Shown in pieces: positions 10,893 to 47,135 of a stretch of 48,046 nucleotides of DNA (positions within the stretch are counted from its first letter, which is position 1; each line of letters begins with the position of its first letter). The notes beneath the pieces were generated by a model. It was not told the DNA's origin and did not search any database. It saw only the letters and a list, made by a program, of their open reading frames with translations. Source of the DNA: an uncultured Candidatus Saccharibacteria bacterium (lineage in GTDB: Bacteria > Patescibacteriota > Saccharimonadia > Saccharimonadales > UBA10212). Location: the NCBI GenBank assembly GCA_964442325.1, contig CAYTYX010000002.1:16108-64153 (forward strand), read 5' to 3'. Both the position numbers and the translations under genes were made by a program.

Positions 10893-12299
10893 CTAGGCCC
10901 CTAGCTGGGTCTTGATAATTTTTTGGGCTAGTTCGGGATTGGCTTGACCTTTAGATTTAGCCATAACTTGGCCAACCAAAAAGCCGATAGCCTTGGCTTC
11001 ACCGTTTTTAACGTCTTCGGCCGCTTTCGGATTTTCTTTGATGACCCCTTCAACAATTCTTTCGATTTCTGACTCATCTGAAATCTGGGAGTTTTTTTCT
11101 ATAAGTTCATCTATGTCTTTGTAGTATGGGTCATTCATTAGAATGCTTAGTGTATGACTTGCAGTAGTAGAACTCGAGGCTTTAACTCTCACGGCCTCAG
11201 CCACTTTGATATGATTTTCTACGCTAATCTTCAGCCTCTCAGGGCTCTCTAATAGGTCATAGGCTATTCGACGAATGTTTTCAGGAACTGCCCCTTGAGC
11301 TATTACTTCGGATATTCTCTGATAGATCTGGGGGTTATCTAAGATGTCTTCAATAGCTCTTATGTCGAGTCCTATTTTACCCAGTTTCTGCCTGATTGAG
11401 GTAGGGAGTTCTGGCAAGCCCTTCTTGAGTTTTGTAATGTAATTTTCTTCTAGTTCAATTGGGGGGATGTCGGGTTCGGGCATATAACGGTAGTCTTCGG
11501 CTTCTTCTTTGCCACGCTGGCTCGTGGTCTTTTGCTTAGCCTCATCCCAACCGCGGGTTTCTTGGACAATCTTGCTACCTTTTTCTAACTCTTCGGTTTG
11601 GCGTTTAATCTCGTAAGCTACCGCGTCCTCAACAGCTCGGAAGCTGTTTAAGTTCTTGGTCTCCGTGCGCGTACCGGGTTTGGCCGGGTCGATACTGACA
11701 CTGACGTTTACATCAAAGCGCATATGACCGTGATATAAATCGGCATCGGACACGTCGGCATACTTCATTATTAGGTAAAGCTCGCGCACGTAAGCCTTAG
11801 CTTCAGCCGCACTATGCATATCTGGTTGGCTGACAATTTCAATTAGCGGCGTGCCGGCACGATTTAGATCTACTAGTGAATAATCAGCACCGGTTTGGTG
11901 AATCGTCTTACCGGCGTCTTCTTCCAGATGCACTCTGACAATCCCAACTTTGGTTTTCTTGCCTGCAACCTCAATTTCAACTTCACCGCCTTTAATAATC
12001 GGCTGGTCGTATTGGGTGATTTGATAGCCTTTGGGCAAGTCGGGGTAAAAATAATGTTTGCGGTCAAACTTACTGAATTTTTGCGGCTCGCCATTTAGAG
12101 CCAATCCTGCGCGTACGGCCAATTCTAGCGCCTTTTCGTTAAGTACCGGCAAGGCTCCGGGCATACCCACGTCAATATGGCTAATTAGCGTATTTGGTTT
12201 AGCGCTGCGGGCATCGTTATCAACGGCGCTAAATAGTTTGGTCTTGGTCTTAAGCTGAACGTGAGTTTCGATGCCAATAGTTGGGAGGTATTTGCTCAT
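10893..12299 (-). CDS. gatB: Asp-tRNA(Asn)/Glu-tRNA(Gln) amidotransferase subunit B
   Basis: IGIETHVQL, HYFYPDLPKGYQITQ and a C-terminal YqeY/GatB tail. 468 aa. Confidence 0.95.
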   Translation of the reverse strand: MSKYLPTIGIETHVQLKTKTKLFSAVDNDARSAKPNTLISHIDVGMPGALPVLNEKALELAVRAGLALNGEPQKFSKFDRKHYFYPDLPKGYQITQYDQPIIKGGEVEIEVAGKKTKVGIVRVHLEEDAGKTIHQTGADYSLVDLNRAGTPLIEIVSQPDMHSAAEAKAYVRELYLIMKYADVSDADLYHGHMRFDVNVSVSIDPAKPGTRTETKNLNSFRAVEDAVAYEIKRQTEELEKGSKIVQETRGWDEAKQKTTSQRGKEEAEDYRYMPEPDIPPIELEENYITKLKKGLPELPTSIRQKLGKIGLDIRAIEDILDNPQIYQRISEVIAQGAVPENIRRIAYDLLESPERLKISVENHIKVAEAVRVKASSSTTASHTLSILMNDPYYKDIDELIEKNSQISDESEIERIVEGVIKENPKAAEDVKNGEAKAIGFLVGQVMAKSKGQANPELAQKIIKTQLGA

Positions 12300-35797: not shown

Positions 35798-36979
35798 ATG
35801 GCAACCCAAAAAATCTTGATTTTAGGCGGCGGCTTTGGCGGCGTTAAAGCTGCGCTGGAACTATGCGGCCAGCCGGATTTTGAAGTTACCGTTTTAAGCG
35901 ACCGGCCAGACTTTAGGTTTTACCCAGCGCTTTACGAAACCGCGACCGGACGGCGCAAATCCGCCTCGTCTATTCCACTGGCCGAAATTTTTGATGGCAA
36001 ATCAGTTCGACTGGTTAGCAGCAGTGCTCAGCAAGTAGACCGTTCTACCAAAAAAGTGACCACCAAAGATGGGCAGAGTTACGGCTACGACATTTTAATT
36101 TTGGCGCTCGGTGTTGTTACTAATTTTTTTGGCATCAAAGGTTTAGACAAGTACGCCTACGGCATTAAAACCGAAGACGAAGCCCAACGCCTGCGCTCGT
36201 CTATCCATAAACAGTTGGTAGAGCAAGCCCAGCCGGATGTTAATTATGTAGTGATTGGCGGTGGCCCAACCGGTATCGAGCTGGCCGGTGCCCTACCGAC
36301 TTACATCAAACATATAATCAAGCGCCACGGCCTAAAGACAAATATGCCGCATATAGATTTAGTGGAGGCTTCGCCGCGGCTGGCACCACGTATGCCGGCG
36401 GGCTATTCGCGATCAATCGCCAAGCGCCTGCAAAAATTAGGCGTTAATCTTTACCTCAACCAAAAGGTCGAGGCCGAAACCGCCGATGCCCTGATGGTGA
36501 GTGGCCACTCTATAAAAAGTCATAGCGTAGTTTGGACGGCCGGCGTGACCAACCATCCGTTCCTAAAGACCAACGATTTTAAGCTGGACGAACATGGCAA
36601 AGCAATAGTAGATGAACATCTTAGCGGCGGCCCGGATATCTACATTATTGGCGACAACGCCGCCACCAAATATTCGGGTATGGCCCAAACAGCCGTCTAC
36701 GACGCCAAATTTATTGCCAACAATTTAAAACGCCAAGTCGATGGCAAAAAGCCATATGCGTACAAACCAAAACAGCCTGTCTATATTACGCCGGCCGGCC
36801 CGCACTGGGCGGCCGTCCAGTGGGGCGGCTTTCGCTTTTACGGATTATTGGGTTGGCTGCTACGCGGTGCGGCCGATTTAGTGGCCTACCACGATTTTGA
36901 ACCTTTGAACCGGGCATCTAAGCACTGGCTGGCCGAAGGCCAAAGCGATGCCAGCTGCCCTGTCTGCGACCATCACTAG
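35798..36979 (+). CDS. ndh: Type II NADH dehydrogenase-like FAD-dependent oxidoreductase
   Basis: ILILGGGFGGV and VVIGGGPTGIELAG dinucleotide-binding motifs, plus IYIIGDNA. 393 aa. Confidence 0.85.
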   Translation: MATQKILILGGGFGGVKAALELCGQPDFEVTVLSDRPDFRFYPALYETATGRRKSASSIPLAEIFDGKSVRLVSSSAQQVDRSTKKVTTKDGQSYGYDILILALGVVTNFFGIKGLDKYAYGIKTEDEAQRLRSSIHKQLVEQAQPDVNYVVIGGGPTGIELAGALPTYIKHIIKRHGLKTNMPHIDLVEASPRLAPRMPAGYSRSIAKRLQKLGVNLYLNQKVEAETADALMVSGHSIKSHSVVWTAGVTNHPFLKTNDFKLDEHGKAIVDEHLSGGPDIYIIGDNAATKYSGMAQTAVYDAKFIANNLKRQVDGKKPYAYKPKQPVYITPAGPHWAAVQWGGFRFYGLLGWLLRGAADLVAYHDFEPLNRASKHWLAEGQSDASCPVCDHH

Positions 36980-37059: not shown

Positions 37060-37353
37060 TTAGCGGCGTCGGTTAACCCACTTAACCAGCGTGTAGCCGG
37101 CTGTGGCGTAGACCAGGATGGCGAACAAAGCGCCAAAGTCTACAGTGTGGCCGCTTGTAGTTGGAGCTACAGAGTAGACCTCACGGAAGGGCTGAAGCAA
37201 CGTGCTGCTGCTTTGGTACACCCAGTGTACAAACGTTGCCGACGGGCTGGCCGAGAGAATCTCGAATACTGCCCGCAAAGCTAGTAGAACGGATGCAAGC
37301 CCTGCGTAAAAGTTAATAATCCATCCCACCGTTTGAACCTGAGAGTATTTCAT
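37060..37353 (-). CDS. YggT-family membrane protein
   Basis: 97 aa with two TM segments and a central ...TLLQPFREV...VDFGALFAILV pattern, resembling the YggT P-x-R ... D-x-S/G motif. Confidence 0.6.
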   Translation of the reverse strand: MKYSQVQTVGWIINFYAGLASVLLALRAVFEILSASPSATFVHWVYQSSSTLLQPFREVYSVAPTTSGHTVDFGALFAILVYATAGYTLVKWVNRRR

Positions 37354-37511
37354 TACCCCTCCTTAAGTTAATGCTTGAATTATAAAATCAAGTAGACGAT
37401 ATCGCCAATAGTAGGTTTTACTACATTTACAAAAAGTAAGTTTTGTATGCTGATTACTTATTAGCACAAGCGTAAACGCTAAACAATCTTAATAATGGTT
37501 CAAACTAGCCA

Positions 37512-37534
37512 AAACCGCAGGCTTCAATCGTAAG
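37512..37534 (+). repeat. Possible degenerate copy of the cassette-boundary repeat
   Basis: AAACCGCAGGCTTCAATCGTAAG matches about 14 of the 21 consensus positions plus a 2-nt insertion. It lies just outside high-GC island B. Confidence 0.25.
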
Positions 37535-37553
37535 ATTAAAGACTATGGTGTTG

Positions 37554-37577
37554 GCCGGGCCCCCGAAGGGACCCGGC
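37554..37577 (-). terminator. GC-rich hairpin after the island B ORF (no U-tail)
   Basis: GCCGGGCCCC / GGGACCCGGC stem (one mismatch), loop CGAA, beginning 6 nt beyond the stop codon on the minus strand. Confidence 0.45.
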
Positions 37578-37582
37578 AAGGT

Positions 37583-37888
37583 TCAGGCCGATGTGGCTGC
37601 CCGGTAGGGCTGCGGACCCGCGTAGGAGCGGATCAGCAACGCCAGCAGGTACAGCACGACGTCGCCCACGATGTTGGAGCGATCCTGGTAGTTCGCCGCG
37701 ATGAGCGTGAAGGCGATGATCGCGAAGCCCGCCAGCGAGAAGTACGCGAAGACGTGCCAAGCGACCCACGTGTGACCAGACTGGTAGTTCGTGCCGATGA
37801 TGGCGAGGCTGATGCCGAGGAAGGCCAGCGGCAGCGGCGTCCACTCGATCTCGAACAGACCGATGAAACGGTTGAGCGCGCGGCTCAT
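37583..37888 (-). CDS. Small 3-TM membrane protein encoded in high-GC island B
   Basis: The ATG at 37888 is preceded by GGAGG (complement of 37896-37900). 101 aa (MSRALNRFIGLFEIEW...) with three hydrophobic helices and G/C-rich third positions. The longer ORF-track start at 37951 has no RBS. Confidence 0.6.
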   Translation of the reverse strand: MSRALNRFIGLFEIEWTPLPLAFLGISLAIIGTNYQSGHTWVAWHVFAYFSLAGFAIIAFTLIAANYQDRSNIVGDVVLYLLALLIRSYAGPQPYRAATSA

Positions 37889-37891
37889 TGT

Positions 37892-37930
37892 GAAACCTCC
37901 GTGGGAGGGTTTCGGCGCTAGTCTAGCGCC
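37892..37930 (-). promoter_or_regulatory. RBS-sequestering hairpin plus a 17-bp perfect palindrome in the island B leader
   Basis: The RNA GAAACCCUCC-CAC-GGAGGUUUC (37892-37913) pairs the whole GGAGG. GGCGCTAG-T-CTAGCGCC (37914-37930) is a perfect palindrome. Confidence 0.4.
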
Positions 37931-38017
37931 CCGATCGCAAAATGAACGCATCCACCTTGCGATAAGTCCATATTATAATATTATTTAACAATATAAGCAA
38001 TAGTGCTATGGGTTCAG

Positions 38018-38039
38018 CTCCTACCCGCTTGGTTTAGAG
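38018..38039 (+). repeat. Degenerate copy of the cassette-boundary repeat upstream of the topoisomerase IB gene
   Basis: CTCCTACCCGCTTGGTTTAGAG shares the CCCGCTT core, and its 3' continuation GAGCGTG is identical to the copy at 40282. Confidence 0.35.
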
Positions 38040-38059
38040 CGTGACTGCATCTATCATTA

Positions 38060-39049
38060 ATGCATATGTCTAAGCGTTATATCGAGCGGCAGCGCACCGG
38101 CACCAAATCCTTCCAGTACTTCCACGGCGGCCGGCAAATTACAGGCAAAGATGAGCTGGCGTACTTTAAGTCACTGGCCATACCACCCGCCTGGCAAGAC
38201 GTAAAGATTGCCGCCAGCCATAACGCCAAAATTGTGGCAACCGGCATAGACAAGGTTGGGCGACTGCAATATGTCTACAATGCTAAGTTCCGAGCCCGCC
38301 AAGAAAAGGAAAAGTTCGAACGTATTCTGCGCTTTGCCCGGGCCCTGCCTAAAATGCGCCGCGTTACCGACGAACATTTGAAGCAGCCCGGTCTGCCGCG
38401 CGAAAAGATTCTGGCCTGCATCGTCCAGCTGATGGACAAAGCCTACTTTAGGGTCGGTAACGAAGAGTACGCGCTAGCTAACCAGCACTATGGTCTTACA
38501 ACTTTGCGCAGCAAGCATACCCAAATCAAAGGCGATACCATTGTGTTTGACTTTGTGGGCAAAAGCGGCCAGGAAAACCTCAAAAAAGTTACCGATAAAC
38601 GCCTGGCCAAAATTGTTAAAAAGTTGGACGATCTGCCGGGTTACGAGATTTTTCAATACGTCGCTGAAAACGGTGATTTAAAAGACATCGATAGTAGCGA
38701 CGTCAATGAATACATCAAAGAAATCATGGGCGAGGAATTTAGTGCCAAAGACTTTAGAACTTGGGGCGGCACGCTGCTGGCCAGCATCGAGCTAACCCAA
38801 ACCGAGCGTTCACATTCCATAAACGAGCGTAAAAGGGCCGTAACCGAATGTGTTAAAAAGGTGGCCCAAACTTTGGGCAACACGCCAGCCATCGCCCGCG
38901 CCAGCTATATAGATCCACGCGTCATCCACGCCTACGTGGTCACCAATGATTTATACAAAGTCCGCCAAGCCGTCAAAACATTATCACGGACGCCTTACCT
39001 GACTTCCGACGAGCACTGCGTTTTAAACCTGCTCGAAAAATCTGCCTAA
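38060..39049 (+). CDS. Type IB DNA topoisomerase (bacterial/poxvirus-like)
   Basis: 329 aa. Contains FDFVGKSGQ (catalytic Lys region), KDFRTWGGT (Arg), and NTPAIARASYIDP (Asn-x8-Tyr with the nucleophilic Tyr). The stop TAA (39047-49) is the first three bases of the repeat. Confidence 0.85.
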   Translation: MHMSKRYIERQRTGTKSFQYFHGGRQITGKDELAYFKSLAIPPAWQDVKIAASHNAKIVATGIDKVGRLQYVYNAKFRARQEKEKFERILRFARALPKMRRVTDEHLKQPGLPREKILACIVQLMDKAYFRVGNEEYALANQHYGLTTLRSKHTQIKGDTIVFDFVGKSGQENLKKVTDKRLAKIVKKLDDLPGYEIFQYVAENGDLKDIDSSDVNEYIKEIMGEEFSAKDFRTWGGTLLASIELTQTERSHSINERKRAVTECVKKVAQTLGNTPAIARASYIDPRVIHAYVVTNDLYKVRQAVKTLSRTPYLTSDEHCVLNLLEKSA

Positions 39050-39067
39050 CCGGCCGCTTATTTTGAG
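39047..39067 (+). repeat. Cassette-boundary direct repeat, copy 1
   Basis: TAACCGGCCGCTTATTTTGAG, 20/21 to consensus TAACCGCCCGCTTATTTTGAG. Confidence 0.8.
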
Positions 39068-39169
39068 CATAAATTGCTTACTTAGTGCTTTTATTGTAAA
39101 ATAATTCCGTTCTGCTAGGCTCTTTCGCCCAAACGGCGATTGGTACAAAACGTCTACAGGAGGTACGAG

Positions 39170-39592
39170 GTGAGCTCGGTTACTGCTTCGCACAGGTTCC
39201 CGTGGCAGGTCTTCCGAGGGCCGGCAAGCTTGGTCGCGGCCTACGTGGTCGGCTACAACGTCGTGCATGACGTCGCGAACAACCAGTGGTGGTTCCCGTT
39301 CGCGTTCGCGGCACTCGCGGTGCTGACCGTGTTCTTCGAGGGCGTCTACGACGAGCCTCTGCCCGGCGGAGCGCTCGGCCCTAGGGACATGAGCAACATC
39401 ATGTGCATGCTCCTTGCCCTCGGCATCCCGGCCGTCGCCGTCATCGGAGGCGCTTTCCACAGCGGGTGGTACTGGTGGGTTGGAGCGCTGGCCATGTTCC
39501 TCGTGAACACGATCCTGTACTTCGGGTTCCGGCAACGCGGCCTCAGCGGCCTGGTCGTCGTCGTCTGCTTGTTCGCGCTCGCGGTCTTCTGA
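39170..39592 (+). CDS. Small 4-TM membrane protein encoded in high-GC island C
   Basis: The GTG at 39170 lies 6 nt after AGGAGG (39158-63). 140 aa with four hydrophobic segments and Trp-rich loops, at about 58-67% GC in hand counts. Followed by a 16-bp hairpin. Confidence 0.6.
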   Translation: MSSVTASHRFPWQVFRGPASLVAAYVVGYNVVHDVANNQWWFPFAFAALAVLTVFFEGVYDEPLPGGALGPRDMSNIMCMLLALGIPAVAVIGGAFHSGWYWWVGALAMFLVNTILYFGFRQRGLSGLVVVVCLFALAVF

Positions 39593-39610
39593 CGGCCTCC
39601 ACATCGACTG

Positions 39611-39647
39611 CCCCCACCGTGTCCGCTTCGTGCGGACGCGGTGGGGG
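39611..39647 (+). terminator. Long GC-rich hairpin after the island C ORF
   Basis: CCCCCACCGTGTCCGC - TTCGT - GCGGACGCGGTGGGGG, a 16-bp stem with one G-U pair. No U-tract follows. Confidence 0.55.
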
Positions 39648-39654
39648 TATTAAA

Positions 39655-39675
39655 CTACCGCCCGCTTATTTTGAG
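39655..39675 (+). repeat. Cassette-boundary direct repeat, copy 2
   Basis: CTACCGCCCGCTTATTTTGAG, 19/21 to consensus. Confidence 0.8.
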
Positions 39676-39720
39676 TGTGCTTATGCTTGCAATTTATTGG
39701 TTATAAATTAGATTACAGTT

Positions 39721-40002
39721 ATGAGCTCACGGAATTCTGGATCGCCTGAAATTAGATTCTGTTTGACTGACTTCGCGAATGGTCTCTTGGATCGGCGGGT
39801 AGATTCTTTGACTGAAGAGGAAACTGACAAGCTTAATGCCGCTTATTATGCAAAGGGGATTGGTGAGACAATATTCGCATGTACGAACGAAGGCTGTCGA
39901 ATGATGTATGGGCTGTGTTCGGTCGATGGTGTGCTATATCCAGGCAACCTTGTCATACATGAAGCGCCTTGTATGAACATCAAGTCAATCGAGCAAGAGT
40001 AA
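39721..40002 (+). CDS. Hypothetical 93-aa Cys-containing protein
   Basis: It is the sole ORF between repeat copies 2 and 3. Five Cys residues (C14, C54, C59, C66, C84). No recognisable family. Confidence 0.5.
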   Translation: MSSRNSGSPEIRFCLTDFANGLLDRRVDSLTEEETDKLNAAYYAKGIGETIFACTNEGCRMMYGLCSVDGVLYPGNLVIHEAPCMNIKSIEQE

Positions 40003-40027
40003 CCAGCCGTAATTTTGATATCTATTC

Positions 40028-40048
40028 TAACCGCCCACTTATATTGAG
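40028..40048 (+). repeat. Cassette-boundary direct repeat, copy 3
   Basis: TAACCGCCCACTTATATTGAG, 19/21 to consensus. Confidence 0.75.
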
Positions 40049-40050
40049 GG

Positions 40051-40056
40051 TATAAT
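40051..40056 (+). promoter_or_regulatory. -10 box (TATAAT) positioned for a leaderless transcript of the 73-aa ORF
   Basis: TATAAT, then 6 nt, then ATG at 40063. It lies immediately after repeat copy 3. Confidence 0.35.
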
Positions 40057-40062
40057 TTATCT

Positions 40063-40284
40063 ATGCGCTGGCTTTCCAAGTTCCAGATACCTCTTTACAC
40101 ATTTATTTGGTTTTTGGTTTTGCCTTTTCCTTTTGAACCAGGCTGGAAGTTATTTGGCGGTTACCACATCATTGCGAACACATATAACAGCTCCGTCACT
40201 CGCCGGCTTATGTTCATCTTAGTATCGCTAATCCTAGGCTGGTTGACCTATAAAGCCCTGAACCGCAAGAATAGTTCCGCTTAA
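40063..40284 (+). CDS. Hypothetical 73-aa two-TM membrane protein
   Basis: It is the sole ORF between copies 3 and 4. Two hydrophobic helices. Its TAA stop (40282-84) is the first three bases of repeat copy 4. Confidence 0.5.
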   Translation: MRWLSKFQIPLYTFIWFLVLPFPFEPGWKLFGGYHIIANTYNSSVTRRLMFILVSLILGWLTYKALNRKNSSA

Positions 40285-40302
40285 CCGCCCGCTTATTTTG
40301 AG
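40282..40302 (+). repeat. Cassette-boundary direct repeat, copy 4 (matches consensus exactly)
   Basis: TAACCGCCCGCTTATTTTGAG, 21/21. Confidence 0.85.
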
Positions 40303-40306
40303 CGTG

Positions 40307-40735
40307 CTATCGCCAGAGTTGGTAGTTTTTGGTTAGAGCGTCCACTTCGTCTTTGGGGCCAAAAATCCCTATGCCCAGGTATTCAATCTCGCTGTCTGTT
40401 TTTGAAGCGAGTATTTTGGTTATCTCTTCGTCGTCTGTGGTTTCTATCATTTCTTTTATAAAGCCGTGGTAAAGCAGGCCAGAGCCGCGAACTTTGTCCA
40501 TCAAGTTGGGTAACTGCCCCGGCTTGGCGCGAAGAATAATTATGGCATACTGCGAGTTACGCGGGTGGTCTATGCCGTCTTTGCTAACAAAGTTCTCTGC
40601 CGTACCAAAAGACTCCTCTAGCTTATGGCCCAAATACGCGGAAACGTGGGCAATAGTGTTTAAGACTTGCCACTGTTCCAGCTCCTTATTAACTACAATT
40701 ACCGCTTTTTTTGAAAAATCCTGAGCTTTAGCCAT
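40307..40735 (-). CDS. DUF2000-like protein (PTH2-like fold family)
   Basis: 142 aa. KAVIVVNKELEQWQVLNTIAHVSAYLG...YAIIILRAK...GLLYHGF pattern, recalled as typical of DUF2000. It is the sole ORF between copies 4 and 5. Confidence 0.55.
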   Translation of the reverse strand: MAKAQDFSKKAVIVVNKELEQWQVLNTIAHVSAYLGHKLEESFGTAENFVSKDGIDHPRNSQYAIIILRAKPGQLPNLMDKVRGSGLLYHGFIKEMIETTDDEEITKILASKTDSEIEYLGIGIFGPKDEVDALTKNYQLWR

Positions 40736-40755
40736 TACTCTATTTTAACTCAAGA

Positions 40756-40777
40756 TAATCCGCCGGCTTATTTTAAG
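40756..40777 (+). repeat. Cassette-boundary direct repeat, copy 5
   Basis: TAATCCGCCGGCTTATTTTAAG is the consensus with one inserted T and two substitutions. Confidence 0.65.
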
Positions 40778-40794
40778 AGACTTTAAATATTCTT

Positions 40795-42135
40795 TTATTG
40801 ACTACCTGAAATTAGTGATTTTGCCTCAACGACCAATGAATCAAATTCTGCAGAGTTCCCCACATCACTCATAAATCGAGTGAGTTCTTGGCGACCGGAC
40901 TGAGCATCTGCATATTTGTAATTAAACCATCCAGCCATAAACAAGAAGACTGGGTTCTCTGTCCTTTCAAATTCGGTAAGATCAAAATCTATAACTTTAA
41001 GGATAGAGGTTTCGCGTAGGAATTTTGGCTTCAATCTTTTTAATCTTGCTAAGCCCTTCTTGTGCTTTCCCTCGGCCATATCCAAAAAGGCTAAGTTGAT
41101 TTTAGGCAACTGACTTCGGGGTAATAGTCGAGCGGCCATATGTGTATGCTCTTTTGCCTTTTTGGAGTCACCCATTCGCCAATATTGTGTCGAGAGATCT
41201 TGATGGATCCGCCCGTTGCTTGGATCTAACAGCAGCGCTTTTTCGGCATACTCGTTAGCTTCTTTAAACTCTTCTTCCCAGTTGTGATGCTGGTTCATCC
41301 CCATGTACATTCGAATCAAATATTTTTGAACTTGCAATTTAACATAGTCGAGATTAGGGAAATTCACATCTAATAGTCTCGACTCGAGTTGTTTGTGTAG
41401 AGACTCAAGTATTTTAAGTGCAGCCAACACATACCTCATTTCTCGCAACGACTCCAGACAAACAGCTAATGTAAAGAGGCTCATCTCAGCCACATTCCCG
41501 GCAACGATTTTTATTTCGGGCAGTGAATTTGTTTTCTGAATATCCCAGTTCCCTCTTTTGTTCGACTCTTTCAGAATTGATTCTATATAAATCTTCTCGT
41601 GTGGGGCTCGCGTTGAAAATTGATAAGAGATCTTAATATCAAATCTTGTAACGTCAACTTTATTGAATGATCCTTCTAGGGCATCGCCCCAAACTAGAAC
41701 CCTTATCCCGTTTTTTGTTATGAATTTCTCTGCTTTATCAGCGGAGCTAAAAGATAAGTCAGAGGGATAGCGCCTAAATTTTATTAGCTCCCCCAATCCT
41801 TCTTGATTAACAATATTTGTTAGTGCCTTCTGCACTTTTTGGGTAATCTTGGCTACCTCTTCGTCTTCTGGCTTTATGGCTATTCCGATGACTAATTCTT
41901 GCGGTGAGCGTAGTTTTAGCCATTTGTAGGACCAGGTTATGATGACCGCTAGTAGGGAAAGTACGATTATCACTGAAGATATATTCGCGGGTAAAAATAT
42001 TCCAATAGAGCGAAGTCCCCCAATGACCACAGTTTCAATTATTAGAATAGCGAAGCAATAGATGAGGAGACTGTCTTTAGTCCCCCACTCAGCCTTCTTT
42101 AATTCTTGTAGCCAATTTGTAACACTCTCAGCCAT
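40795..42135 (-). CDS. Membrane-anchored protein with an unknown central domain and C-terminal TPR-like repeats
   Basis: 446 aa. Two N-terminal TM helices, a beta-alpha-patterned middle region (VIGIAIKPEDEE...IRVLVWGD), and a C-terminal helical repeat region (EYAEKALLLDPSNGRIHQDLSTQYWRMGDSKKAKEH...). About 37% GC in a hand-counted sample. Confidence 0.7.
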   Translation of the reverse strand: MAESVTNWLQELKKAEWGTKDSLLIYCFAILIIETVVIGGLRSIGIFLPANISSVIIVLSLLAVIITWSYKWLKLRSPQELVIGIAIKPEDEEVAKITQKVQKALTNIVNQEGLGELIKFRRYPSDLSFSSADKAEKFITKNGIRVLVWGDALEGSFNKVDVTRFDIKISYQFSTRAPHEKIYIESILKESNKRGNWDIQKTNSLPEIKIVAGNVAEMSLFTLAVCLESLREMRYVLAALKILESLHKQLESRLLDVNFPNLDYVKLQVQKYLIRMYMGMNQHHNWEEEFKEANEYAEKALLLDPSNGRIHQDLSTQYWRMGDSKKAKEHTHMAARLLPRSQLPKINLAFLDMAEGKHKKGLARLKRLKPKFLRETSILKVIDFDLTEFERTENPVFLFMAGWFNYKYADAQSGRQELTRFMSDVGNSAEFDSLVVEAKSLISGSQ

Positions 42136-42442: not shown

Positions 42443-43639
42443 CTAATCAAAGAAGTTTATATTTTTGATTTCTGAAGGTAAAAAACCTTCAGGGTGTTCG
42501 AACCCAGCTTCCCATTTCGTACCTTTGCCGTAGCCCAAATCTTTCATCAGCTTGGTTGGCGCGTTGCGCAGGTGCAGCGGCACGGGCAAATCCGGATATT
42601 GCCGAGCGGTAGCTTGAGCTTTGCCCATAGCATTTGTAATATCGCGGCTTTTGGGCGCTTTGGCCATCACCGTGGCGCAGTGAAACAGATTATATTGGCA
42701 CTCTGGCATTCCAATTCGTTCTACCGCCAAAAAAGTCGACACGGCCAAATTTAGCGCCGCCGGAGCGGCCATGCCGATATCTTCGCTGGCAAAAACCACC
42801 ATCCGCCTAGCAATAAACTTTGGGTCTTCCCCGGCCTGTAGCATCCGCGCCATATAATAAAGCGCTGCGGTTGGGTCGCTGCCACGCATAGATTTTATAA
42901 ACGCGCTGATGATGTTGTAGTGCTGCTCGCCGGCTTTGTCGTACCCCGGAATCCGAGCTTGGGCAGCTTGCTCCACGATTTTATCTGTAATTACGGCTTT
43001 ACCGGCCAGCTGATTGGCCAGCTCCAGGTTGCCCAGCGCCACACGGGCGTCGCCACTGGAAAGTTCGGCCAGCATATCTAAACTTTTGGCCGGTAAGCGC
43101 TTGGCGGCAATTTTTTCTGCCTTGGCCGCGGTTTTAAGAATGTGGGTGATGTCTTGTTTTGTTAGCGGGTTGAGCACAATCACCCGGCTGCGGCTAAGTA
43201 GCGGCGTGATGACTTCGAAACTGGGGTTTTCGGTAGTAGCGCCGATTAGCGTGACTAAGCCAGACTCGACGTGTGGCAAAAAAGCATCTTGTTGGGCCTT
43301 ATTAAAACGATGAATTTCATCCACGAAGAGTACCGTTTTGACAGGTTTTTCGACGGTACTACCTTGCTCGTTCTTACGAGCCCGCTCGACCACTTTTGTA
43401 ACATCGGCTTTGCCGGCGTTAACGGCGCTAATTTCTACAAAGTCGGCTTCTAGTTCGTTGGCAATAATCCGGGCCAGCGTAGTTTTGCCGCTACCGGGCG
43501 GCCCCCAAAAAATCAAACTAAAAGGCTTGCCGGCTTTAACCAACTCGTCTAAAAGTTTGCCACGGCCCAAGATATGTTCTTGGCCGACTACCTGTCCCAA
43601 AGTTTGCGGGCGCATCCGCTCCGCCAAAGGTCTGTCCAT
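42443..43639 (-). CDS. rarA: Replication-associated recombination protein A (AAA+ ATPase)
   Basis: Walker [12 protein letters not shown], Walker [10 protein letters not shown], and a C-terminal MgsA domain ([24 protein letters not shown]). 398 aa. Confidence 0.9.
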
Positions 43640-44365: not shown

Positions 44366-45880
44366 TTAAACGTAGCCGGGGAAGAAGTCTGTTTTAATAC
44401 GGTTTCTGGCTACACCGAGTCTTCTTAAAATATCCGTCATCGCTTTAACCATAGTGTGCGTTCCGGAGATGTAAAATGTTCGCTCAGCGTAGTCTGGTAT
44501 CTGAGCCTTTATGAGCTTGGCGTTGATTGGGCCGGGCTTAGCGCCAGCCGGCAAAGTCGCGGTCTGGCCGGTCAACACGTAGGTGACGCTGTGGCCTAGT
44601 TTGCGCCGGGCGGCTTCGAACACATCGGTATATACTAGCTCGTTGGCATTCTTGGCAGAATAGAGCATAGAGACGGAGCGATTATCGTTGGTGTCTAGTA
44701 GGTATTTGGTCATACTGCGAAACGGTGTTATGCCAATACCGCCGGCTATAAAGGCCAGTTTCTCGGCTTTGTCTTCGGGCATTGTAAAGTCGCCGCCAAG
44801 CTGGGCAACGGCTATTGGCGTGTCGTTATCCATTACCAACATAGCTTGTTTGAAGCTGCTGCTTTGGGAGTAAAATTTTACGCCTAGCCTAAGATTGTCT
44901 TCGGTTGGCGACGAAGCTAGGGTAAAGTAGCGGCGATTGCCGCGAGCGTCGGCACCGGCGTGTGGCAGCGTCCACTCGGTATATTGGCCGGGCTTGTACG
45001 AAAATTTTTGGTTATTAGAGAAAACAAAATCAACTACATCTGGCGCCAGCTTATGTTTTTGAGCCAGTTTTGGTAGCAACTTAACTTTTGGAGTTATCAG
45101 ATACGAAAAGATGTTGCTGGCAACCAGCGCTAGCTCCGGCGTTGAATACAGGCTAAATAAATGAACTTGTGGCGGCAGTAAGATGCCGGCCAAAGCCCCA
45201 TACCACCTTTGGCCAACTTTGATAGCTGGCGAAGTTAGAGGCTCGATCAGCATCACAAACGCCAGGAAAAATAGCGGTGAGTGTAACAGCGCTCGATGCA
45301 AGGCGTCTGACACGCCGCCACCACCAATTAGTGTATAAACAGCAGTAGCTATAAGCGTGGCCGCCAAAAAACTAAACACCATTTGCCAACGCTGAATTTT
45401 CCGCACCAGCAGCATGCCGCCCAGCACAACCAGTGGCAGTAGGTGCGAACTACTCACCCACCAGCTGGCAGTGTCGCCAGCGCCAATCGCCGTTAGCGCA
45501 ACCGCTACCGCCGCCGGGTTAAAGATGTGCTTTTTATTGATCGTTAAAATGTATTTAGAAGCCATAGCCAACCCGCCAGCGGCCGTTAGAAAAATCAAGC
45601 TTTGACTCGAGGCCAGCGGCGTGATTATGAGCGACAGTATCAACGCCGTAATCAGCGGCGACTCAATAGCGGCCGGTACCTCGTAGGCATAGGCAAATAT
45701 CTTATTAGATACATAGCAAATCAAACTTAGATAACCGGCCGACAGGGCAATTGCCAACGGTTTATACGAGATATAGCCGGTCGCGCCCATAACCATAGCC
45801 CCGGCCAGCAAAAATAATAGATAGTACAGTGTTAGCCGGTACATCGAGATACTATCTAGCACTTTATCTATAAACTTCAT
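44366..45880 (-). CDS. Membrane-embedded FNR-like flavin reductase (polytopic N-terminal domain fused to a FAD/NAD(P)H-binding domain)
   Basis: About 250 aa of TM helices, then RRYFTLASSP (RxY[ST] FAD motif) and GGIGITPFRSM (NAD(P)H-binding motif). 4-nt overlap with apbE. Confidence 0.75.
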   Translation of the reverse strand: MKFIDKVLDSISMYRLTLYYLLFLLAGAMVMGATGYISYKPLAIALSAGYLSLICYVSNKIFAYAYEVPAAIESPLITALILSLIITPLASSQSLIFLTAAGGLAMASKYILTINKKHIFNPAAVAVALTAIGAGDTASWWVSSSHLLPLVVLGGMLLVRKIQRWQMVFSFLAATLIATAVYTLIGGGGVSDALHRALLHSPLFFLAFVMLIEPLTSPAIKVGQRWYGALAGILLPPQVHLFSLYSTPELALVASNIFSYLITPKVKLLPKLAQKHKLAPDVVDFVFSNNQKFSYKPGQYTEWTLPHAGADARGNRRYFTLASSPTEDNLRLGVKFYSQSSSFKQAMLVMDNDTPIAVAQLGGDFTMPEDKAEKLAFIAGGIGITPFRSMTKYLLDTNDNRSVSMLYSAKNANELVYTDVFEAARRKLGHSVTYVLTGQTATLPAGAKPGPINAKLIKAQIPDYAERTFYISGTHTMVKAMTDILRRLGVARNRIKTDFFPGYV

Positions 45881-46617
45881 CCGGCAACCACGTATCTTTC
45901 AAAACCACTAGTGAGAGTGGCTAATTTATCACCACTAATCATATAGCCTTCAAAGCCATCTAGCTTTTCTATAAACTCGATGCCACGCTTGCCCATCGCG
46001 AATGCGGCGGTGGCAAAACGGTCGGCTTCGTAAATGTTTGGGCCAATGACCGTTAGGCTCGCCACTGCCTCCAGATCTGCACTGGAATTTTTTGGGTCAT
46101 ATATGTGCTGTCCGCGAATATAGGTACCTGAGGTGGCGACGCCTTTATCGGTTAACTCGATTATTTTTACTATCTCTTCCCTTTTAAATGGGTTGCGGAT
46201 ACCGATTCGCCACAGCTGCCCCTCGGCACTGCTGCCGTGTATTTCTACGTCGCCGGCTATCTCGACATAAAAATTGCGGAAGCGTTTGGCTAGCAGCTGG
46301 GCGGCGTTATGGATGGCCCAGCCTTTAACTAAGCCGGACGGATCCAGCTTGCCGGCATGGGAAATTTCAAAGTAGCCATCGGTTTGTTGCTTGGTCTGTT
46401 CGCAGAGATCTAAGACTTGTTTCATCTCGGCCGACCATTTGTTTTTGGGCAGGCCTTGATTGACTTTAGAGATCTCGCTGGATAATTTATAGGTGCTGTA
46501 TTTGGCGTCAACTTCGTGGAAATAATCAAACACTTCATCAAACACGTCACCAGTAGCGGCTTTATCGATGATTTCGACTGTGGCTGGCATACCCATTACT
46601 ATTTTAGTTTTCTTCAT
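45877..46617 (-). CDS. apbE: FAD:protein FMN transferase (ApbE family)
   Basis: 246 aa. MGMPATVEI...DPSGLVKGWA...VEIAGDV...VATSGTY...HIYDP pattern of the ApbE family. This is a short form without an obvious signal peptide. Confidence 0.8.
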   Translation of the reverse strand: MKKTKIVMGMPATVEIIDKAATGDVFDEVFDYFHEVDAKYSTYKLSSEISKVNQGLPKNKWSAEMKQVLDLCEQTKQQTDGYFEISHAGKLDPSGLVKGWAIHNAAQLLAKRFRNFYVEIAGDVEIHGSSAEGQLWRIGIRNPFKREEIVKIIELTDKGVATSGTYIRGQHIYDPKNSSADLEAVASLTVIGPNIYEADRFATAAFAMGKRGIEFIEKLDGFEGYMISGDKLATLTSGFERYVVAG

Positions 46618-47135
46618 TAGTGCGCCTGGCTTAAAGCCGAAGCCAGCGATTCTATAAAGGCTTGGCTGGTATCGCTGGCACCGGAAATTATATTTACATT
46701 GCTACTCTGGGCTTGAATGGCTTCTTGTTTGAGGTAAGGCAGGGCTTGGCCGTTTATGTAAACTGAGGTTGAGCGGTCACTCGGGTACTGTAAAATTTGC
46801 ACGTCGGTCAGTTTGCCACCCTGGATAACTGCCTGCACTTGAATATATCCGTAGTACGCGTTGGCGGCACTACCGGTGTAGTTACCGTTTTTATACTGGC
46901 CGGTGGTTTGCTGAGGCGTAGTTGTTGCAGCTGGAGGGGTAACGGTGCCACCATCGTCTGCGCCTTCTGAATTTATAGAAGTTGATGGAGGCGTAGATGT
47001 CGGGGTCTGGATAGGCGGTAAGACCAAAGCAACGCCAGAGCCGTCGTGCCGTTGATGAAAGCTATAGGCAACAAAAGTAAGCACCACAAAGCCGGCCAGC
47101 AAGGATTTTTTTAGATTTTTACTAGGTTCAAACAC
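46617..47135 (-). CDS. Membrane-anchored extracytosolic FMN-binding domain protein
   Basis: N-terminal TM anchor, a Thr/Pro-rich linker, and an FMN_bind-like domain ending in the flavinylation-type motif IISGASDTS (about 46674..46685). Confidence 0.75.
   Translation of the reverse strand: MFEPSKNLKKSLLAGFVVLTFVAYSFHQRHDGSGVALVLPPIQTPTSTPPSTSINSEGADDGGTVTPPAATTTPQQTTGQYKNGNYTGSAANAYYGYIQVQAVIQGGKLTDVQILQYPSDRSTSVYINGQALPYLKQEAIQAQSSNVNIISGASDTSQAFIESLASALSQAH

Follow-up and report, generated by a model that had tools for sequence, protein, structure and literature searches.

The window analysed here, a stretch of 48,046 nucleotides (nt) from an uncultured Candidatus Saccharibacteria bacterium (GenBank assembly GCA_964442325.1, contig CAYTYX010000002.1, positions 16,108 to 64,153 of the forward strand), carries a complete gene for a type IB topoisomerase (TopIB) that ends inside a repeated element of about 25 nt, one of five copies joining a row of single-gene units. 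With a probability of roughly two in three, TopIB is cargo or an old resident of this repeat-delimited array of exchanged units, and not the recombinase of the array. In the mechanism envisaged, the bacterial family would keep a variable zone between a conserved flank (oxidoreductase, NQR and ApbE genes) and mgsA/rarA, and in the lineage of the window this zone would be a row of single-gene units joined by the element CTAA-CCGCCCGCTTATTTTGAG-CG. The element would give the upstream gene its stop codon and would be followed by the downstream gene's own promoter, often as TATAAT with a start codon 6-8 bases on, and units would be gained, swapped and occasionally inverted by recombination at it. 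TopIB would be one such unit, and probably an old one. Saccharibacteria, which take up DNA, live as epibionts on Actinobacteria, and short-homology recombination after such uptake might take the place of a recombinase.

The Junction Element

The genome from which the window derives is a metagenome-assembled genome (MAG) of 0.59 Mb in 59 contigs, 86.5% complete and with a GC content of 49%. Alignment of 24 copies of the repeat, drawn from the window, from relatives and from metagenome contigs, delimits a conserved block of about 25 nt, CTAA-CCGCCCGCTTATTTTGAG-CG(T), with sharp edges and information near zero on either side. Within the window the 18-mer CCGCCCGCTTATTTTGAG begins at 39050, 39658, 40031, 40285 and 40760, always on the forward strand, and a genome-wide search allowing at most one mismatch to the degenerate form finds the repeat at this one locus. 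A 22-mer gave three matches at up to three mismatches, versus none in 100 shuffles. When a position weight matrix made from 17 distinct copies was applied to the genome, the five window copies scored 21.5-41 bits and the next best site 15.7, with three whole-genome shuffles peaking at 12.6-17.6. The repeat delimits single-gene units of mixed composition, their GC content at third codon positions (GC3) ranging from 0.41 to 0.88.

TAA stands immediately 5' of the 18-mer in 15 of the 24 copies, and in 12 of the 24 an open frame of 40 codons or more ends with it. TopIB provides a case in point: a first-pass annotation of this DNA had placed the stop codon of the gene inside its boundary repeat, and the TAA at 39047-39049 does directly precede the 18-mer at 39050-39067 as part of the conserved block. 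A scan of species representatives with the 18-mer returned 85 stretches versus about 70 expected by our own estimate, and only the Saccharibacteria records among them look real. Two matches in viral contigs have an unrelated context and are at chance level.

Arrays and Probable Unit Exchange among Relatives

The family comparison covered 49 genomes, including that of the window (G000). A profile model of the repeat has matches at E values up to 1e-3 in eight of them (G000, G007, G015, G017, G028, G029, G041 and G042), and co-oriented pairs or rows occur in four of the eight: G000, G017 and, as pairs, G007 and G029. The longest array, that of G017 together with a 10-kb metagenome extension (L149), has at least nine co-oriented copies; its cargo comprises an aldo-keto reductase, two GNATs, DUF1697, a 2H-phosphoesterase-like protein, DUF3892 and several unknowns.

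Together with these arrays, observations on individual units indicate exchange at the element. Contigs L149 and L150 share a homologous unit (85.7% identity over 819 nt) whose similarity extends from repeat to repeat, with a different neighbour on either side. In L146 a DUF2000 unit, 74.9% identical to that of the window over 415 nt, is again inverted beside a repeat. Contig L155, identical to the window over 39651-41571, starts 7 nt before copy 2. A contig of the sequencing run X2 furthermore gives TopIB a different upstream neighbour, joined inside the repeat. Recombination at the element would account for such patterns, as far as sequence comparison can tell.

The place of these events on the chromosome appears to be fixed. 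By tblastn, the oxidoreductase gene upstream of TopIB adjoins it in G044, G020, G018 and G025 as well, and in four of the six TopIB loci fetched from relatives, TopIB lies beside the same oxidoreductase and major facilitator superfamily genes, in two of these within 3-5 kb of mgsA. The gene mgsA is near repeats or TopIB in G015, G028, G025, G020 and G041, and the repeats of G015, G028 and G041, like the repeat-like sites of G020, lie close to mgsA, in the orientation that leads towards it, just as in the window. TopIB is therefore located in a variable zone whose place on the chromosome the family maintains. The tie between TopIB and the repeat that had been proposed from the window alone is borne out in part: the locus of TopIB is syntenic in relatives, most of which lack the repeat there. 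Beyond mgsA, the window has NQR-like, ApbE and FMN-binding genes (44366-47135), which in G025, G018 and G020 are found between the oxidoreductase and TopIB; this shift indicates that the variable zone has been rearranged in the lineage of the window.

The Topoisomerase and Its Boundaries

The open reading frame (ORF) is a genuine, complete bacterial type IB topoisomerase, and the earlier description of it as intact and furnished with the catalytic set is borne out. Its true start is likely the second ATG, since relatives are proteins of 327-328 amino acids (aa) that begin two codons later. It matches Pfam PF01028 (Topoisom_I) with 148.6 bits (cut-off 23.7, residues 75-280) and PF21338 (Top1B_N_bact, the bacterial N-terminal domain) with 48.6 bits (cut-off 27, residues 18-64). 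The closest solved structure is Deinococcus radiodurans TopIB (PDB 2f4q/3m4a; E 3.1e-66, residues 4-295), followed by the enzymes of variola (2h7f, E 2.9e-15) and vaccinia (3.5e-11). Type IB topoisomerases share the catalytic set Arg-Lys-Arg-Asn/His-Tyr, and Arg150 (TLRSKH), Lys168 (FVGKSG), Arg233 (KDFRTW), Asn274 and Tyr283 of the window protein are in register with the active-site residues of 2f4q and the solved enzymes. The motifs of Lys168 and Arg233 and the Asn274-x8-Tyr283 spacing had been named in the first-pass annotation, whose list left out the first arginine, Arg150. All five residues are unchanged in each of 32 aligned homologues, which were picked across the identity range of the best 120 listed, and proper alignment thus reveals no substituted catalytic residue.

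The best 120 homologues listed are 58-100% identical to TopIB, and the source names given among them all read topoisomerase I/IB or refer to a Saccharibacteria/Saccharimonadales protein. Ranked identities, together with these names, place the protein in an apparent Saccharibacteria-wide TopIB clade of at least 120 clusters at 58-89% identity; no relatives were found in viral contigs. With the enzymes of D. radiodurans and Pseudomonas aeruginosa it shares equal length, the two-domain architecture and the Arg-Lys-Arg-Asn-Tyr site, in which Asn replaces the poxvirus His; it differs from them in belonging to a separate Saccharibacteria clade and in being set in a repeat-delimited gene array. The GC content of the gene is 0.50 and its GC3 0.59, versus 0.52 and 0.55 for the flank genes, and its protein identity to relatives, 62-87%, is similar to that of MgsA (78-82%). 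To judge from these values, TopIB is native in composition and resident in the lineage.

The type IA topoisomerase TopA is encoded in all 49 family genomes, and TopIB is therefore an extra enzyme. The encoded protein is predicted to be a working, auxiliary topoisomerase in which Tyr283 would form a 3'-phosphotyrosyl intermediate during the relaxation of supercoils. As an enzyme it is ordinary, public records already naming Saccharibacteria proteins "DNA topoisomerase IB", and it is a clear case of TopIB as an accessory enzyme alongside universal TopA in a very small genome.

The upstream boundary of the gene calls for more caution. A degenerate repeat copy had been proposed at 38018-38039, and as stated this could not be confirmed: in gapped local alignment the stretch 38018-38043 scores 24, sixth in the window, a score reached by 3 of 20 shuffles, and the profile model has no match there at E up to 5. 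The stretch also overlaps a promoter-like TTGGTT-17-TATCAT, read by eye, and a similar CGCTTGnTT stands at the matching distance from the start in the TopIB genes of G018 and G025. Related sequences nevertheless suggest that it is a decayed repeat copy. The X2 contig departs from the window at 38023, with a full left half of the repeat there and other DNA before it; in X2 and in a contig of run X3, two substitutions in the downstream copy make both TopIB-flanking repeats alike over 15 nt; and in G020 a stop codon, a repeat variant that can still be recognised, TATAAT and the ATG lead into the TopIB gene (87% protein identity). The notion that TopIB is organised as a cassette consequently stands for the downstream boundary, copy 1, and for the upstream boundary only in the related strain of run X2 and, more weakly, in G020.

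TopIB as Cargo or as the Enzyme of the Array

It had been left open whether TopIB is cargo of the array or its dedicated enzyme. The cargo half of this proposition is supported and the enzyme half is not. TopIB is present in 9 of the 49 family genomes, in one of the eight that bear repeats versus eight of the 41 that do not, and arrays without TopIB exist in G017/L149, G007 and G029. In the longest of them, TopIB was found neither on the 10 kb of array nor elsewhere in the MAG, which is 92% complete.

Several points weigh against the view of TopIB as cargo of an array of exchanged units. The array of G017 runs off the end of its contig in that 92%-complete MAG, so that a TopIB gene there could lie outside the assembled sequence. 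No recombinase is found at the locus. In several genera TopIB stays next to the conserved flank, as would be expected also of a plain resident gene with cassettes grown around it. Among the contigs of public runs, no excised or circular unit and no joints between repeats were seen. Half-repeat remnants consist of the left half alone downstream of TopIB in G018 and where the G017 contig stops, and of the right half alone at L012 7118 and 9593. Each is at chance level (the G018 remnant has 5.3 bits, E 1.9), and the slightly different places of their breaks are as compatible with decay or homologous exchange as with a precise site-specific cut. Lastly, the right half of the repeat resembles a family promoter module, GCTTAT-N1-3-TTGnnn, with 32 occurrences in the genome, and part of the conservation may thus be regulatory.

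This last point leads to the alternative that there is no cassette system, and that the repeat is an intergenic module for expression, shared among neighbouring genes by copying (a stop codon with promoter-proximal and perhaps operator sequence), with TopIB an ordinary gene. A TATAAT or TAAAAT box at a fixed distance, with ATG 6-8 nt further on, follows 7 of the 24 copies, and GTGCTTATGCTTGCA, a motif also found upstream of unrelated genes in the genome and its relatives, follows five. Consistent with this notion are also the promoter-like right half, the synteny of TopIB in four of six relatives, and the overlap of the statistically insignificant upstream "copy" with the TopIB promoter region. 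However, the strongest conservation is in the 20 nt before the -10 box plus the TAA, and not in the -10 box itself, and for three of the 24 copies the following gene is convergent, with its 3' end towards the repeat, which indicates that the repeat is a junction element and not simply a promoter. The confinement of the repeat to one genomic locus, the widely varied composition of the units and the shared L149/L150 unit, whose neighbours differ and whose homology stops at the repeats, likewise argue against copying of a regulatory module. A simple sigma-70 scan of 37300-41000, in which a canonical promoter at the repeat was sought, yielded four promoter-like sites (4.3 expected) and none at any repeat copy; the promoter readings at the repeats and at TopIB were made by eye, and the boxes are accordingly putative promoters. 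This alternative is therefore considered unlikely.

A very unlikely alternative is that TopIB is the array's own enzyme and would link units after cleaving the repeat at CGCTT. TopIB enzymes and tyrosine recombinases share a catalytic fold, and poxvirus TopIB can recombine at its CCCTT target in vivo. The window enzyme and that of poxviruses have homologous catalytic domains with a Gln-Tyr-x-Tyr strand, and the repeat holds CGCTT in a pyrimidine run; TopIB lies in the array, flanked by repeats, and there is no other recombinase at the locus and a single Xer-like gene in the MAG. The copies keep CGCTT, or its variants CACTT and CGCAT, at the pentamer position, which for CGCTT is one base from CCCTT and therefore does not satisfy the poxvirus target (C/T)CCTT. 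Gln70, Tyr71 and Tyr73 of that strand are unchanged in 32 of the 32 homologues and align with the poxvirus residues that contact or read the pentamer according to PMC2666729. The same paper (PMC2666729) describes characterised bacterial TopIB enzymes as lacking site specificity and attributes no CCCTT preference to the Deinococcus enzyme and a modest one to the Pseudomonas enzyme, which weakens the case for cutting at the repeat. The distribution of TopIB set out above, with arrays that lack it and carriers that lack the repeat, also counts against such a role, as does the fact that TopIB is itself bracketed like cargo. Moreover, left-half remnants retain CCCGC or CCCAC and end before TT, right-half remnants retain GCTTAT, and a cut 3' of CGCTT would give another pattern.

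A wider version, in which a gene-capture system would use the 25-nt element to join expressed units, foreign high-GC genes included, with TopIB as the strand-transferase that cuts CGCTT, is if anything slightly more improbable. Hardly credible is the notion that the mosaic of high-GC pieces and repeats is an artefact of MAG assembly or binning: the MAG is in 59 contigs and incomplete, and Logan contigs of run X1 break inside a high-GC unit and at a repeat, but one X1 contig spans 36500-39153 with no differences, covering the first high-GC unit, TopIB and repeat 1, the independent metagenome contig over 39651-41571 is 100% identical, the junction of TopIB and repeat recurs in diverged form in X2 and X3, and the 52-nt junction element of the window precedes high-GC DNA in G028 too.

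Some further readings of the element were tried and rejected. A half terminator, formed by CCGCCCGC and a T-run, has no complementary upstream half by eye, and a terminator scan finds none at any copy. A DNA uptake signal is ruled out by the confinement of the element to one locus. No RNA runs carrying the locus were present among the public sequencing runs listed. As to the promoter module itself, GCTTAT-N1-3-TTG(A/C)nn stands before unrelated genes in the window's genome (for example on contigs C6, C8, C15 and C32) and in L052, L053 and L058, and the GCGTATAAT box at 6-8 nt before ATG starts suggests frequent leaderless transcripts in the family.

Comparison with Integrons and Xer-Dependent Modules

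The row of units invites comparison with chromosomal integron arrays and clusters of attC sites lacking integron-integrases (CALINs). Both have co-oriented single-gene units with small, diverse and mostly uncharacterised cargo (GNATs, DUFs), a repeat that starts at or over the stop codon, a fixed chromosomal site and strain-variable content. In the window, too, the single-ORF units lie in one orientation, the inverted DUF2000 unit aside, and their content varies between strains. The differences are a repeat of about 25 nt without R'/R'' inverted repeats, the promoter-like box that many units have of their own, and an integron integrase (IntI) that was not found.

On the features tested, namely the absence of an attC-type hairpin and of IntI, an integron is ruled out. 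Judged by its anatomy, the block of about 25 nt, which has no GTTRRRY partner, is not an attC site. The spacing from stop codon to ATG is about 35 nt in 7 of the 24 junctions, and junctions this short cannot hold an attC. Bottom-strand folds of seven junctions have z scores from -2.1 to +0.6, not distinct from shuffles; as attC candidates, 39035-39139 (z -1.47) and 40270-40350 (-2.09) recall R''/R' pairing, and the other five (z -1.41 to +0.61) do not. The MAG has one match to the tyrosine recombinase family PF00589, on contig 48, which is Xer-type and above the cut-off for archaeal XerA. It scores 143.7 against an integron-integrase cut-off of 265, and IntI was not found in the 86.5%-complete MAG. 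Nor was a serine recombinase or an IS110-type transposase found there, which at this completeness does not prove their absence.

Xer-dependent modules are the other obvious comparison, and include the integrative mobile elements exploiting Xer (IMEX) at dif and the pdif modules of Acinetobacter plasmids. They resemble the present array in that short repeats bound discrete modules, and the sole recombinase found in the MAG is Xer-like. In contrast, the window repeat lacks the 28-bp, 11-6-11 layout of inverted arms, its TAACCGC and CCGCTTA being loosely symmetric at 10 of 14 positions by eye, and its copies are direct repeats. No turn in GC skew was seen at the locus.

It is thus the setting, and not the enzyme, that is unusual: a chromosomal, integron-like row with a short junction element that forms no hairpin, no integron integrase found, and promoters that are often borne by the units. 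Across genera of an epibiotic lineage its place is one and the same locus, and some of its genes are clearly foreign in composition. Should units truly move at the element, this would be a second and mechanistically different way to build cassette arrays, and a route by which ultra-small bacteria might sample genes. In the portions of the literature open to full-text search, no account of arrays like these from Saccharibacteria or Patescibacteria came up.

The Units and Their Surroundings

The features of the locus are collected in Table 1. The units point towards mgsA/rarA. In terms of GC3, TopIB (0.59) is close to the native flank genes (about 0.55), the ORFs at 37583-37951 and 39170-39592 reach 0.83 and 0.88, and the TPR-like gene stands at 0.41.

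Table 1. Features of the TopIB locus, with positions in the window.
Feature	Position	Strand	Remarks
Pyridine nucleotide-disulphide oxidoreductase (conserved flank)	35798..36979	+	Pfam PF07992, 2.8e-38; upstream of TopIB in relatives too
Junction element, 52 nt	37513..37564	+	DNA high-GC afterwards; blastn 84.6% over 52 nt to L059 (G028) 11354-11403
High-GC single-gene unit upstream of TopIB	37583..37951	-	122 aa; GC 0.63, GC3 0.83; GC-rich hairpin 37553-37578
Weak repeat-like stretch	38018..38043	+	Also reads by eye as the -35 region of a TopIB promoter
TopIB gene	38060..39049	+	Uninterrupted ORF of 329 codons; probable start 38066 (second ATG); stop TAA 39047-39049
Repeat copy 1	39046..39070	+	CTAA, 18-mer (39050-39067) and 3 nt; holds the TopIB stop codon (39047-39049); 36.0 bits; profile E 2.2e-7
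High-GC unit	39071..39650	+	ORF 39170-39592 (140 aa, GC3 0.88); low-GC leader; hairpin 39611-39647
Repeat copy 2	39654..39678	+	Followed by the family-wide promoter motif GTGCTTATGCTTGCA; matrix and profile
Unit with 93-aa ORF, no known family	39721..40002	+	From the ORF list; no domain match
Repeat copy 3	40027..40051	+	Followed by TATAAT and, six bases on, the ATG of the next ORF; matrix and profile
Unit with 73-aa ORF	40063..40284	+	Stop TAA inside repeat copy 4
Repeat copy 4	40281..40305	+	Best match to the consensus, 41.2 bits, E 1.9e-9; immediately next to the 3' end of the DUF2000 gene on the other strand
DUF2000 unit, inverted relative to the repeats	40307..40735	-	Pfam PF09391, 1e-30
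Repeat copy 5	40756..40780	+	Weakest copy, 21.5 bits, E 9.7e-5; back to back with a minus-strand copy, CCGCCGGC common to both
TPR-like gene	40795..42135	-	446 aa, GC 0.41; between the last repeat and mgsA
mgsA/rarA (conserved flank)	42443..43639	-	Pfam MgsA_C, 1.7e-50; units point towards it

Two of the units are clearly foreign in composition. They occupy 37547-37951 and 39120-39650, have 63-65% GC in a genome of 49%, and each carries a GC-rich, terminator-like hairpin. The ORF at 37583-37951 has no match in Pfam, NCBIfam or phage sequences. Searches for an origin of the high-GC ORFs as a group drew a blank in phage sequences and viral contigs alike, and a protein atlas search gave scores under 0.9 only. 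The 140-aa ORF has seven unnamed metagenome homologues and was not found among 401 genomes sampled from the phylum to which a Herbiconiux record belongs, nor in three named actinobacterial genomes. The leader of its unit includes a promoter-like TTGCTT-17-TAAAAT, read by eye. In G028 the 52-nt junction element precedes another high-GC insert, of about 2 kb, and the ORFs of the window and of G028 are unrelated, which suggests repeated insertion of foreign DNA at one point of a native unit.

Contigs of run X1 break at 39153, 39403 and 39649/39651, inside the high-GC unit and at copy 2, and their depth is lower over 39113-39514; the breaks may reflect strain heterogeneity or GC bias. The TPR-like gene has no tblastn match in ten syntenic loci of relatives and probably belongs to the variable zone.

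The DUF2000 unit has its own minus-strand repeat-like stretch, with TAAAAT and ATG at 40749-40766, back to back with copy 5. Over 40745-40780 opposite-strand repeat copies thus abut and have the near-palindromic CCGCCGGC in common, and one of them is the point from which the inverted DUF2000 unit reads outwards. A near-perfect 20-nt palindrome, ATACTTAAC-NN-GTTAAGTAT, lies at the 3' ends of some units and once replaces the usual repeat; its sites are L146 337 and 1053, L149 2867, L150 near 915, contig C51 of the window's genome at 158, and L057 2836. The halves of this palindrome fit the RYYYAAC and GTTRRRY of integron core sites, only 2 nt apart.

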